This document shows positions 17,260-52,191 of a stretch of 64,000 nucleotides of DNA, piece after piece. The stretch is from Clostridium sp. GTDB taxonomy: Bacteria > Bacillota > Clostridia > TANB77 > CAG-508. Below the pieces are notes generated by a model. The model made no database searches. It was not told the origin of the DNA and saw only the letters and a list, made by a program, of their open reading frames with translations. The stretch is taken from contig JAHAKD010000007.1 in the NCBI GenBank assembly GCA_018371855.1, positions 27,820 through 91,819 on the forward strand, written 5' to 3'. The stretch's first letter is position 1. Every line of letters starts with the position of its first letter. A program made the translations under genes and the position numbers.

Positions 17260-18564
17260 ATGAAGGTAGCGTTTTATACATTAGGTTGTAAAGTAAATCA
17301 ATATGAAACAAATGGAATGATTCAAGCCTTTTTAGAAAAGGAATATGAATTAGTTGATTTTTCAGAAAAAGCAGATATTTATATAATAAATACTTGTACT
17401 GTAACTAGTATTTCTGATAAAAAGTCAAGACAAATGATAAGAAGGACAAAGCAATTAAATCCAGATGCAATTGTGGTAGCAGTAGGCTGTTATGCACAAG
17501 TTGCAAAAGATAAATTAGAAGAAATAAAAGATATCGATTTAATATTAGGAATAAGTGAGAAAACAGAAATAGTTAAGTATGTAGAAGAGGCATTAGCTAA
17601 TAAACAGCCACAAGAACATATATCAGATGTAATGCATCAAAAAGAATTTGTTGATTTTGGAAGTGTAAATTATACAGACAAAAATAGAGTAGCAATAAAA
17701 GTGCAAGATGGATGTAATCAATTCTGTACATATTGCATAATTCCATATGCGAGGGGACGTATACGTAGTAGAAAAATAGAAAATGTAAAAGAAGAGGTTG
17801 TAGAATTAGCTAAAAAAGGAATTAAGGAAATTGTAGTTACGGGAATTCATGTTGCATCATATGGAAAAGATTTAAAAGAAGATATTGGATTAATAGATTT
17901 ATTAGAAGAAATAAATAAGATAGATGGAATAGAAAGAATTCGTTTAAGCTCATTAGAACCAACATTAATTACAGAAGACTTTGTTAATAGATTAAGCAAA
18001 TTAAATAAGATTTGTGACCATTTTCATTTATCATTACAAAGTGGCTGTGATGGGACTTTAAAAAGAATGAATAGACATTATACGACTTCGGAATTTAAAA
18101 AAGCAACTGAATTATTGAGAAAAGCATATCCAAATGTTGCTTTAACTACAGATATAATTGTTGGATTCCCTGGGGAAACTGATGAAGAATTTAATACTAC
18201 TTATGAGTTCTTAAAAAATATTGATTTTTATAAAATGCATGTATTTAAATATTCACCAAGGCATGGAACAAAAGCTGAAAAAATGCCTAATCAAGTGGAT
18301 GGAAATATAAAAGAAGAGAGAAGTAGAAAATTAATAGAATTATCTGCTAAAAATGAAAAAGAGCAAAATAAAAAATATATAAATACTTATTTAAAAGTGC
18401 TAATAGAAGAACTTGAAGATGGTTATTATAAAGGACATACTACAAACTATATAATGGTAAAAATTAAAGAAAATGCAGAAAATCTGCAAAATAAGATAGT
18501 TACAGCTAAAATTATAGGCGAAGAAGGCATAGATTTAATTGGAAAATTGGAAGAAGTCTATTGA
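17260..18564 (+). CDS. mtaB: tRNA t6A37 methylthiotransferase, MtaB-type (radical SAM, MiaB-like)
   Basis: MKVAFYTLGCKVNQYETNG…; CxxxCxxC radical-SAM site (CNQFCTYC); TRAM-like C-terminus. Confidence 0.8.
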   Translation: MKVAFYTLGCKVNQYETNGMIQAFLEKEYELVDFSEKADIYIINTCTVTSISDKKSRQMIRRTKQLNPDAIVVAVGCYAQVAKDKLEEIKDIDLILGISEKTEIVKYVEEALANKQPQEHISDVMHQKEFVDFGSVNYTDKNRVAIKVQDGCNQFCTYCIIPYARGRIRSRKIENVKEEVVELAKKGIKEIVVTGIHVASYGKDLKEDIGLIDLLEEINKIDGIERIRLSSLEPTLITEDFVNRLSKLNKICDHFHLSLQSGCDGTLKRMNRHYTTSEFKKATELLRKAYPNVALTTDIIVGFPGETDEEFNTTYEFLKNIDFYKMHVFKYSPRHGTKAEKMPNQVDGNIKEERSRKLIELSAKNEKEQNKKYINTYLKVLIEELEDGYYKGHTTNYIMVKIKENAENLQNKIVTAKIIGEEGIDLIGKLEEVY

Positions 18565-19294: not shown

Positions 19295-19428
19295 TATTAC
19301 AAAAATATTACAAATGCATTACAAAAATGAAATAAATAATTAAAGGTAATATTATTGTAGAATTATGAAGAAAGATGTATAATAAATTTAGTTTTTGGAA
19401 TTTACGTATGATGAAGGAGGGAATTTAC

Positions 19429-20382
19429 ATGTCTAGATCTGGCATAGTAAATGTTAGAATGGTAATAACTGAGGAGAAGATATTATCAAATATAGAAAAA
19501 GTACATAAAATGATTAATCCTAAGAGTAAGAAGCAAATCATCCAATTAGATGATGATACTTATTTTAAGGATTTAGTAGAAGCTATAAAAACATATTTGG
19601 TAGAGTATCCAAAGAAACAAAATTTCCCTGCAAGTGTTTATAATGCTGCTTTTGATTTAGTTGAATTTGCTACAAGCCAATTTGAAGACAACACTAAACA
19701 AATAGAAAATTTAATTAGACAAAGAGAATTAAATATAAGTTTAGGAGGAAAATTAAAAGAACTTCTAAAGAAAGTTGAAACAAAAGAAAAGAATTGGAAA
19801 GAAGCAGTTAAAGAAGCTCAAGATGATTTTGACGATGATATAATAAATACTTTATTAATTATAGGTAGAAGCAGAAGCAAAGAAACAGATCATTATAAAG
19901 ATGCTTTAAAACTTTTAAAAGCAAGAATATCTAATTTGGAATCAAACTTACATATCGAAATAGATATGGAAAGAATAGAAGATAGATCAAAAGCATTAAG
20001 TTATATTGGACTTGAAATAGCAGATGCATTAAAAGAAATACCAGCACCAGTAGAAGATATGGTAGAAGAAGTAGTAGAACCTGTTATGGAACCAGTTCAA
20101 AAAGTTAAAAAGGTAAAAGCTAAGAAAGAAAAGAAAGCTAATGTTGCTGCAATTGCTGAACCTTCAAATGTAGAAAAAGTAAAACAACAACCAAAAGTAG
20201 AAACAATCCAAAAAGTAGAAAAACCACAACAAGAACAATATGTAGCAGAAACATTCGAAGCTAAACCAAGTTTATGGCAAAGATTTAAAAACAGTAAATT
20301 TGTAAGAACAATTAAATATATTATGAGTATAAGAGTAGTTCTTGAAGTTCCAGCACTTCCAGAAGGAAAAACAGAAAATTAA
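19429..20382 (+). CDS. Hypothetical protein with coiled-coil and an E/V/K-rich region
   Basis: The ORF has a GGAGGG RBS before the ATG at 19429 and no recognisable family. The ORF-track start at 19375 is probably too early. Confidence 0.5.
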   Translation: MSRSGIVNVRMVITEEKILSNIEKVHKMINPKSKKQIIQLDDDTYFKDLVEAIKTYLVEYPKKQNFPASVYNAAFDLVEFATSQFEDNTKQIENLIRQRELNISLGGKLKELLKKVETKEKNWKEAVKEAQDDFDDDIINTLLIIGRSRSKETDHYKDALKLLKARISNLESNLHIEIDMERIEDRSKALSYIGLEIADALKEIPAPVEDMVEEVVEPVMEPVQKVKKVKAKKEKKANVAAIAEPSNVEKVKQQPKVETIQKVEKPQQEQYVAETFEAKPSLWQRFKNSKFVRTIKYIMSIRVVLEVPALPEGKTEN

Positions 20383-20457: not shown

Positions 20458-20541
20458 ATGAATATAGAAAAATTTCTAAAAAAATAGTAAAAAAGTATTG
20501 ACATATTATATTAAAAATAGTATACTAAATCTCGTCGACAG

Positions 20542-20617
20542 GCTCCCTTAGCTCAGTTGGTCAGAGCAACCGGCTCATAACCGGTGGGTCCAAGGTTCAA
20601 ATCCTTGAGGGAGCACC
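20542..20617 (+). tRNA. tRNA-Met (anticodon CAU; elongator versus Ile2-lysidine type not distinguishable)
   Basis: The cloverleaf folds by hand: acceptor GCTCCCT/AGGGAGC, D-arm GCTCAGTTGGTCAGAGC, anticodon loop CTCATAA, T-arm CAAGGTTCAAATCCTTG, then A-CCA. A TTGACA–N17–TATACT promoter lies at about 20498-20526. Confidence 0.8.
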
Positions 20618-20637
20618 ATTTTTAAATTTAATAATAT

Positions 20638-20946
20638 GGGTAGGTGGCCGAGTGGCTAAAGGCGGCAGACTGTGGTCTTTGGTTTATCAAAAACCTAAAC
20701 TTGCAGCTCATATAAGTGATTATATGATGAACACCGGGCTAATTCGGGGAACTCTTAACAGTAAGGCTGATGACAATCCCGAGCTAGGAAAGAAATTTCC
20801 GAGTGTAGAGACTTTATACCTGGTATCTTAATTTTAAGATAAAGAGAAAGTCCAGACTACAAACATATATATGGTAGTGAAAACTATAGTAGTAAGAAAT
20901 CTGTTCTCATTTGAGTACGATGGTTCGAATCCATCCCTGCCCACCA
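20638..20946 (+). tRNA. tRNA-Tyr (anticodon GUA) gene interrupted in the anticodon loop (between U35 and A36) by a roughly 223-nt group-I-like intron; the spliced tRNA is 86 nt including an encoded CCA
   Basis: 5' exon 20638-20673 (GGGTAGGTGGCCGAGTGGCTAAAGGCGGCAGACTGT) and 3' exon 20897-20946 (AAATCTGTTCTCATTTGAGTACGATGGTTCGAATCCATCCCTGCCCACCA) join into a canonical class-II tRNA-Tyr. The acceptor is GGGTAGG/CCTGCCC, the anticodon stem GCAGA/TCTGT, the loop CU-GUA-AA, with a long variable arm and the T-arm GATGGTTCGAATCCATC. It is nearly collinear with E. coli tRNA-Tyr as recalled from memory. Confidence 0.8.
20674..20896 (+). ncRNA. Putative self-splicing group I intron (small, with no ORF), inserted in the tRNA-Tyr anticodon loop
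   Basis: The insertion follows a U and ends in G (…AGTAAG|), matching the group I 5' splice-site and omega-G rules. It contains R-like (GTGTAGAGACTTTA) and S-like (AAAGAGAAAGTCCAG) core elements, and there is an AGAC/GTCT pairing between the exon end and the intron start. At 223 nt it is comparable to the small tRNA-intron class of about 200 nt, as recalled from the literature. Confidence 0.65.
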
Positions 20947-20949
20947 ATA

Positions 20950-20980
20950 AAGTACAAGCTAAACTTGTATTTTATTTTTA
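20950..20980 (+). terminator. Rho-independent terminator after the tRNA pair
   Basis: AAGTACAAGCtaaaCTTGTATTTTATTTTT. Confidence 0.6.
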
Positions 20981-21295
20981 AAGTTGCAAACAAACAAAAG
21001 TTCGAAGAGCACTATATAATTTTATTCTAATAAGGAAAAGGAAAAAATATAAAACTTTAATAAATACTAATATAGATTATTTATTTATACTAAATGCAGA
21101 TTTAAAAATGTATGTAATTTCAAAAAATGAAATTAAAAATAAAAGTACAATAAATTTAGGGAGAAAGATGAATAAATTTATTGTAGAGTTCTAAAGTATA
21201 AACTGAAGGGGCAAAGATATATTTTATCTAGCCTCTTCATTTCTTCGTTAATTTAAGGTATAATAATTAATAAACTTAAAGAGAAAGGTAGTAAA

Positions 21296-52115: not shown

Positions 52116-52191
52116 TGGTGCCATTGGGCAGAATCGAACTGCCGACCTTCGGGTTACGAATCCGCTGCTCTACCAACTAAGCTACAACGGC
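52116..52191 (-). tRNA. tRNA-Thr (anticodon CGU), with an imperfect anticodon stem
   Basis: The minus-strand read is GCCGTTGTAGCTTAGTTGGTAGAGCAGCGGATTCGTAACCCGAAGGTCGGCAGTTCGATTCTGCCCAATGGCACCA. Acceptor, D-arm and T-arm are canonical. The loop is TTCGTAA, and the anticodon stem has two mismatches. Confidence 0.65.

Follow-up and report, generated by a model that had tools for sequence, protein, structure and literature searches.

The DNA analysed here is a stretch of 64,000 nucleotides (nt) from a Clostridium sp. genome (assembly GCA_018371855.1, contig JAHAKD010000007.1, positions 27,820 to 91,819 of the forward strand), referred to below as the window; coordinates are counted from its first letter, and all features described at the tRNA locus lie on its + strand. 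Within it, a tRNA-Tyr(GUA) gene is interrupted in the anticodon loop by a 223-nt insert that is very probably a functional group I intron. ARAGORN with intron detection, applied to positions 20501-21100, reported a split tRNA-Tyr(gta) at 20638-20946 with an intron of 223 nt ("actgt-Intron-aaatc"). The 5' exon (20638-20673), delimited by ARAGORN and by the empty site described below, comprises the acceptor 5' strand, the D arm and the anticodon stem 5' strand and finishes with C32 U33 G34 U35. The 3' exon (20897-20946; ARAGORN) runs from A36 A37 A38 and the anticodon stem 3' strand through the variable arm, T arm and acceptor 3' strand to the CCA, and has the same sequence as in intronless alleles. 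Joined, the two halves form an 86-nt class II tRNA-Tyr(GUA) with a normal cloverleaf (acceptor GGGTAGG/CCTGCCC, anticodon stem GCAGA/TCTGT, loop CU-GUA-AA, long variable arm, encoded CCA). The insertion point falls between anticodon positions 35 and 36, with U20673 preceding the insert and G20896 as its final base, and the predicted ligated exon junction reads ...GGCAGACUGU joined to AAAUCUGUUC (...GACUGU|AAAUCUG...). No open reading frame (ORF) of 20 amino acids or more lies wholly inside the insert, nor were terminal repeats found in it. Default ARAGORN and Rfam at the gathering threshold reported neither the tRNA-Tyr nor the intron in the window, the only tRNA genes these two scans found there being tRNA-Met(CAT) (20542-20618) and a tRNA-Thr (52116-52191); this miss reflects a sensitivity problem of the default finders and is not evidence against the intron.

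A 33-nt query made up of the predicted ligated junction and the variable arm, run against public metagenome contigs, recovered 93 intronless tRNA-Tyr genes, 45 of them identical over all 86 nt to the spliced product predicted for the window. The Met-Tyr gene order was kept in 40 intronless loci. One empty-site contig (L201, OHTD01000080.1) is 94.9% identical to the window upstream and 91-92% downstream, and its alignment breaks exactly at 20673|20897, which marks the insert as a separate unit whose ends are exactly those predicted. ARAGORN's intron mode and this intronless locus agree with the original prediction, made from the sequence, of tRNA-Tyr halves separated at 35/36, and the empty-site boundary likewise matches the insert as then described, following a U and ending in G. 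The identity of the 45 intronless tRNAs to the joined exons argues that the exons of the window are not decaying, and the presence of intronless alleles at the same Met-Tyr locus shows the window gene to be orthologous to an ordinary tRNA-Tyr gene, as opposed to a spare copy. Also, a locus of Clostridium sp. CAG:354_28_25 (L072), about 93.5% identical to the window over 7.7 kb, carries the intron and L201 (∼93%) does not, suggesting a recent and precise gain or loss. The intron itself is 99.2% identical between the window and L072, and is thus better conserved than its surroundings. No second, intronless tRNA-Tyr occurs in any of the 8-kb loci.

Relatives and conserved fold of the intron

A permissive Rfam search of positions 20600-21000 (401 nt) aligned 20670-20874 with the full length (1-253) of the group I model Intron_gpI (RF00028), with 40 bits and an E value of 6.3e-9. 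The matched segment has 37% G+C, the intron being strongly A+T-rich, and the alignment stops 22 nt short of the true 3' end and mis-pairs P1. An R-like block (GUGUAGAGACUUUA, 20803-20816) and an S-like block (AAGAGAAAGUCCAG, 20842-20855) had already been noticed in the insert, and the model places GUGUAGAGACUUUAUACC and AAGAGAAAGUCC at its consensus R and S positions, respectively.

In order to find relatives, one genome per GTDB species was scanned with the pattern GTGTAGAGACT-N25-55-AGTCC-N25-55-GAAATCYG, which gave at least 120 loci. At least 103 other species genomes carry a tRNA-Tyr(GUA) split at this position by an intron (ARAGORN; 103 of the 120 matches listed), with intron lengths in these 103 of 198-249 nt and a mode of 221-227. 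The intron is thus not rare in low-GC Clostridia-type genomes, a group for which the original prediction knew of no described case. Six further loci hold the same intron with an ORF in a reconstructable tRNA-Tyr (L018, L053, L112, L123, L010 and L067); L057 resembles these, but its tRNA-Tyr could not be reconstructed, and in four more loci (L016, L065, L075 and L037) the gene is truncated at a contig end or broken by a run of N. Carriers among the matches listed are almost all gut or rumen metagenome-assembled genomes (MAGs) whose labels read Clostridia bacterium or Clostridium sp. CAG:354/567/575, with a second group labelled Bacilli, Tenericutes or Mycoplasma and two Anaerolineales. In most intron-bearing loci, as in the window, tRNA-Met(CAT) lies directly upstream.

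Some matches were set aside. L056 and L064 are chance pattern matches in apparent coding sequence, and group I introns of the tRNA-Arg type account for L066, L099, L121 and probably L039, which were picked up because the last block of the pattern matched inside the intron (P9) and not at the exon junction. L066 (Desulfogranum marinum DSM 2058), L099 and L121 are tRNA-Arg(UCU) genes with introns of 231-240 nt; the splice sites of L066, read by eye as CUU|...G|CUAA, correspond to 34/35, the ARAGORN placement being one base off.

An alignment of 104 distinct intron sequences (A1) is the basis of a P1-P9 secondary structure model, in which P7, part of J8/7, AGUCC and the omega-G are fixed by the search pattern. 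Pairings proposed for the P1 region by RNAalifold and cmscan were unreliable, and a manual model in which each pair was checked takes their place. Standard pairs fill 97.5% of the 7,635 cells of the model; sliding the 3' partners by 1-3 columns lowers this to 36-40%. Changes on both sides occur in 40 of 74 pairs, and the covariation score is 0.245, against 0.04-0.07 in the slid controls. P2, P3, P4, P5, P6, P8 and P9 are all backed by compensatory changes, and the core folds into a P4-P6 stack and a P3-P8 stack linked by the P3/P7 pseudoknot. The earlier description of the insert as a compact, ORF-less group I intron is therefore sustained, both by this conserved structure and by the lack of an internal ORF.

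P1 is formed by the last four exon bases CUGU and the first intron bases GG (5' strand, 20670-20675; 5' splice site after U20673), which pair with the internal guide sequence UUGCAG (3' strand, 20701-20706). The wobble pair U20673·G20703 at the 5' splice site is present in all 104 sequences, as is the guide GCA, and both lie outside the search pattern. The other exon-guide pairs are nearly as constant (G-C 104/104, U-A 104/104, C-G 95/104), and the next two are G·U or A-U. UU at 20701-20702 can also base-pair with the two bases that open the 3' exon, giving a weak P10 of two A-U pairs. The original prediction had instead built P1 from exon AGAC and intron GGUCU, a pairing that has to be abandoned in favour of the conserved CUGU/GCAG (20703-20706) helix: intron positions 2-3 vary without compensation, and two of its four pairs are kept in only 70-77% of the 104 sequences. 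A hairpin in the P1 loop, P1a (20678-20698), shows compensatory changes in 4/4 core pairs and is dispensable, being missing from the intron versions of 198-201 nt and replaced in some relatives by a homing endonuclease ORF. In the three shortest introns (L026, L038 and L058) the P1 region is CUGU|AG-AAGAA-UUGCAG, revealing the true minimal P1 and P1a as an optional insertion.

P2 (20708-20727) is a hairpin of 8 bp with a GUGA (GNRA) loop and compensatory changes in 8/8 pairs. P3 pairs CCGGG (20734-20738) with CCUGG (20819-20823), is paired in 99.6% of cases and has compensatory changes in 4/5 pairs. P4 (20744-20749 with 20777-20782) encloses P5/P5a (20753-20773), both drawn from A1, and P5 holds an invariant CUU-AA/AUG internal loop resembling a GNRA-tetraloop receptor. 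P6/P6a (20783-20804; compensatory changes in 5/8 pairs) is capped by a GAAA loop. The 5' strand of P7, G-A(bulge)-GACU (20808-20813), lies in the R element GUGUAGAGACU and is invariant, though part of the search pattern; with A20809 bulged, 20808 and 20810-20813 are perfectly complementary to 20849-20853, and this helix is presumed to bind guanosine. The P7 previously predicted from AGACU/AGUCC is thus recovered in the model as GAGACU/AGUCC, within a consistent P3-P7 core. P8 (20824-20841) shows compensatory changes in 5/6 pairs and is followed by J8/7 (AAGAGAA) and the P7 3' strand AGUCC, which make up the S element (20842-20853; AGTCC is in the search pattern). P9 (20856-20893) is a three-way junction in A1, composed of P9 ACUAC/GUAGU, P9a (compensatory changes in 3/3 pairs) and P9b (4/5) with a GAAA loop, an architecture common to the phage tRNA-Leu intron L001 and the seed sequence Mun3.Ser.3Ug. 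The GNRA loops on P2, P6a and P9b and the receptor-like loop of P5 may engage in L2-P8 and L9-P5 contacts. The final intron base, omega-G (20896), with the 3' splice site after it, is placed by ARAGORN and the empty site and is part of the search pattern. Compensation extends across the intron as well: anticodon-stem pair 27-43 has changed from G·U to C-G in eight intron-bearing genes (L024, L033, L077, L098, L104, L114, L117 and L122), which have ACCAGA...UCUGGC and not GGCAGA...UCUGUU (A1 columns 1-3 and 317-319). The window intron lies in the anticodon loop, is collinear with the classical tRNA-Leu and tRNA-Arg introns and resembles the IC3 type of bacterial tRNA introns.

Endonuclease-bearing and phage-borne copies

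The window intron has no homing endonuclease and lacks this mark of a mobile intron. In six relatives, four labelled Bacilli (L018, L053, L112 and L123) and two Anaerolineales (L010 and L067), the intron measures 591-628 nt and holds an ORF of about 130-145 codons in the P1 loop, where the window has P1a. The predicted proteins of L018 and L067 match the PD-(D/E)XK endonuclease family PF11645 of Pfam (E 5.9e-17 and 5e-23, respectively), which includes I-Ssp6803I, encoded as a homing endonuclease by the tRNA-fMet intron of Synechocystis. No relative of the L018 endonuclease with a solved structure was found by phmmer among PDB sequences. In L018 (intron at 83-684 of that locus) the ORF is preceded by a GGAGG motif and reads through the guide sequence into P2; the L010 ORF is shorter and may be frameshifted. 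The ORF-less Bacilli-type introns L082 and L083 retain GAUCUGGAGAUAU...AUCUUCUAAUUGCACC in the P1 loop (A1 columns 11-62), which looks like the ends of an endonuclease insert (ribosome-binding site and last codons) after an internal deletion.

Comparison with phage records by blastn gave only partial matches, in the S/P9 region (the 3' third of the intron), and no full-length relative. One match (L001, 421-711) belongs to a 735-kb uncultured phage (LR756501, LR756501.1) and is a tRNA-Leu(UAA) gene with a 205-nt intron that ends GUAGUAAG|AAAAUC, against GUAGUAAG|AAAUC in the window. Also, the viral contigs L220, L222, L223 (a 117-kb uncultivated virus genome, UViG) and L226 (a 231-kb UViG) carry tRNA-Tyr(GUA) genes with introns of 180-189 nt at 35/36; the phage group I introns known to a 2014 review (PMC3984707) were all in protein-coding genes. 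Two crAss-like phages, L002 (Kolpuevirus, OQ198718) and L003 (cr111_1, MT774387), have a stretch about 80% similar to the S/P9 part of the window intron between a GIY-YIG endonuclease gene and a replicative helicase gene, and the latter presumably harbours a group I intron there. An Rfam search of L001-L003 by E value returned nothing at E ≤ 0.01, even for L001, a clear case of a group I intron in tRNA-Leu.

Transcription, splicing and alternative explanations

The tRNA-Met(CAT) gene (20542-20618; ARAGORN and Rfam), the immediate upstream neighbour of tRNA-Tyr, is probably co-transcribed with it. Upstream of the pair lies a sigma-70-type promoter-like site, TTGACA-17-TATACT (20498-20526; 11/12 matches), merely plausible as a promoter since such sites are no commoner in the region than in shuffles. 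At 20951-20979 a hairpin rich in A+T, AGUACAAG/CUUGUAUU, with a run of U behind it, was read from the sequence; it is likely an intrinsic terminator, missed by a terminator scan because this demands three G-C pairs. Directly before the promoter-like site is a 335-amino-acid ORF (19375-20382, +) with no Pfam match at E ≤ 1e-5. A gene at 17260-18564 (+), 2 kb upstream of the tRNA pair, encodes a UPF0004 plus radical-SAM protein of MiaB/RimO-type methylthiotransferase architecture, a closeness that is probably coincidental.

The insert most likely splices itself. In the proposed route, the tRNA-Met/tRNA-Tyr precursor would be transcribed and the intron would fold into P1-P9, the last four exon bases CUGU pairing with the guide GCAG (20703-20706) so that the U20673·G20703 wobble marks the 5' splice site. 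Free guanosine held in P7 would attack this site; the terminal G20896 would next occupy the guanosine site, whereupon the 3'-OH released at U35 would attack after G20896, joining the exons and restoring the anticodon loop CU-GUA-AA. The copy in the window is probably a pared-down representative of a lineage in which other members have the endonuclease gene in the P1 loop.

Several observations weigh against a functional, self-splicing intron. The case for splicing is built on sequence comparison, and a second tRNA-Tyr gene may lie beyond the visible 64 kb. The RF00028 score of 40 bits does not reach the gathering score of 50, the threshold for membership; L001 and all 13 Tyr introns tested from gut Clostridia or Bacilli also stay below it. 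The invariance of P7, AGUCC and omega-G is not independent evidence, as they are part of the search pattern, and the finding that 0 of 500 shuffles match any pairing or covariation measure has an inflated significance, the A1 sequences being close kin (median 86% identity to the window). The minimum free energy (MFE) fold of the single sequence recovers P2, P8 and P9, misses the pseudoknotted core and is only modestly better than shuffles (z = -2.2). As to the score, the 13 sub-threshold gut introns suggest that this A+T-rich lineage is systematically under-called by Rfam; according to Williams (2020; bioRxiv 10.1101/2020.01.27.920355), the RF00028 seed is without bacterial members. The gathering score is passed by the tRNA-Arg intron L066 (60.8 bits) and by L067 (57.6 bits), an Anaerolineales tRNA-Tyr intron at the same site and collinear with the window intron. 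The covariance-model check suggested at the outset is thus divided, the E value speaking for a group I intron and the bit score falling short, and here the comparative evidence overrides the score.

The most durable alternative, which we nevertheless consider unlikely, is that the group I intron depends in the cell on an RNA chaperone or host protein for its splicing and would be a poor self-splicer in vitro. The low G+C of the Rfam match, a P1 with only four exon pairs, a P10 limited to two A-U pairs and an MFE fold no more than 2.2 standard deviations better than shuffles would fit such a dependence, and many group I introns need protein cofactors (PMC3984707). Set against it are the conservation of all core helices and three GNRA loops with compensatory changes, and the self-splicing of the small bacterial tRNA introns tested so far, those at 35/36 included, as given by Nakagawa et al. 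(2026; PMC13011429).

Less probable still is a dead insertion, with an inactive ribozyme, a tRNA-Tyr pseudogene at this locus and a supply of the tRNA from elsewhere in the genome, as the possible gene outside the window, the sub-threshold Rfam score and the intronless alleles of relatives might suggest. The exons are 100% identical to an intronless functional allele, compensatory changes run throughout the intron across more than 100 species, and the intron has diverged less than the DNA on either side. The intronless alleles, moreover, occupy the same Met-Tyr locus and so represent the orthologous gene, and the 8-kb loci hold no intronless tRNA-Tyr; the dead pseudogene envisaged as a refutation of the original prediction is improbable on these grounds. 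An insertion of another kind, be it an insertion sequence, a group II intron or a protein-spliced bulge-helix-bulge (BHB) tRNA intron, has the anticodon-loop position as the sole point found in its favour and is effectively refuted by a full-length match to the group I model only and by the P3-P7 pseudoknot fold. A site at 35/36 and not the 37/38 usual for BHB introns, and the lack of an ORF and of terminal repeats, also speak against it, and bacteria are not known to have a tRNA splicing endonuclease.

With the insert taken as a functional group I intron, a doubtful further proposal is that it resides in the sole tRNA-Tyr gene of a large clade of uncultured, small-genome gut Clostridia and has been kept since guanosine/Mg2+-dependent splicing tunes tRNA-Tyr supply, not carried along as a neutral passenger. 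The conservation of the intron above its flanks and the intronless alleles at the same single Met-Tyr locus are compatible with this. If the gene is indeed the only one, tyrosine decoding, and with it translation, would depend on RNA self-splicing in these organisms. Standard annotation (tRNAscan-SE, default ARAGORN, Rfam at the gathering score) misses the gene, so that more than 100 gut or rumen Clostridia or Bacilli MAG species seem to be without tRNA-Tyr and tRNA-based completeness scores of MAGs are distorted. With about 100 richly covarying natural variants, a minimal form of 198-201 nt, forms with and without endonuclease and matched empty sites, the lineage is also a set useful for studies of intron gain and loss and for ribozyme engineering. 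The general picture of group I introns is unchanged by the finding.

Relation to known bacterial tRNA introns

Older lists and the 2014 review (PMC3984707) place bacterial tRNA group I introns only in Leu, fMet, Ile and Arg. In Williams (2020), the four classes grow to 21, 17 of them new, including Tyr.4Ug, defined by U at -1, G at omega and insertion after the fourth anticodon-loop position, i.e. 35/36. Nakagawa et al. (2026) report 333 tRNA group I introns in 4,934 complete genomes, 28 of them at 35/36, among which they list a tRNA-Tyr(GUA) intron in Patescibacteria (GCA_016699995.1) and one intron in Bacillota_A. The window intron shares with Tyr.4Ug its tRNA-Tyr host, its location behind the fourth base of the anticodon loop, the U at -1 and the omega-G. 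Given the Tyr.4Ug class and the Patescibacteria entry, neither host tRNA nor site is new, and the new lineage or insertion site anticipated by the original prediction gives way to a well-supported further example of an already catalogued tRNA-Tyr intron at 35/36. That prediction as a whole survives in part, right on the group I intron, its site and P7, and wrong on P1 and on novelty. For the IC3-like sublineage, its breadth in gut Clostridia, the empty sites, the endonuclease forms and the phage copies, no description was found in the accessible parts of the literature.

Among the Tyr.4Ug introns, the seed alignment of Williams (2020) holds Mba143.Tyr.4Ug, whose P1 (CUGU|AA-ACAA-UUGCAG) shares the CUGU|..UUGCAG design with the window intron. 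Its core is about 55% identical, with J3/4-P4 GAUAACGGUG against CUAAUUCGGGG, and it has a simple P9 hairpin where the window has a P9 three-way junction. The window intron also aligns with seeds of Williams' bacterial tRNA-intron model. According to PMC13011429, 25 of the 28 introns at 35/36 are of subgroup IA, whereas the window intron resembles IC3 tRNA introns. The introns in tRNA-Asn and in tRNA-Asp of Patescibacteria described there share the loop position, are likewise missed by standard tRNA finders and self-splice precisely in vitro at 35/36, but belong to subgroup IA, other tRNAs and another phylum.

A further structural parallel is with the tRNA-Leu(UAA) intron, which in its phage form L001 is collinear with the window intron helix by helix at 57% overall identity. 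Both are ORF-less and of about 200 nt, and share the GNRA-capped P2, J3/4-P4 AAUUCGG, P4' CCGAGC, R GUGUAGAGACU, S AAAGUCCAGAC and a P9 three-way junction with GAAA loop, ending GUAGUAAG|. They differ in site, 34/35 with guide GAGU in tRNA-Leu and, one base 3', 35/36 with guide GCAG in the window. The small, ORF-less tRNA-Arg(UCU) introns (Desulfogranum marinum, L066) align with the window at 60% and have the same R and S blocks, in another host tRNA and at another site. The same holds for the Agrobacterium tRNA-Arg(CCU) IC3 intron, small, ORF-less and with the same R/S blocks in a different host tRNA and site, and presumably for the Azoarcus tRNA-Ile(CAU) intron, also small and ORF-less with these blocks in a different tRNA and site. 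The Synechocystis tRNA-fMet intron, with its PD-(D/E)XK endonuclease I-Ssp6803I, is paralleled by those relatives of the window intron that encode a PF11645 protein, whereas the window copy is ORF-less.

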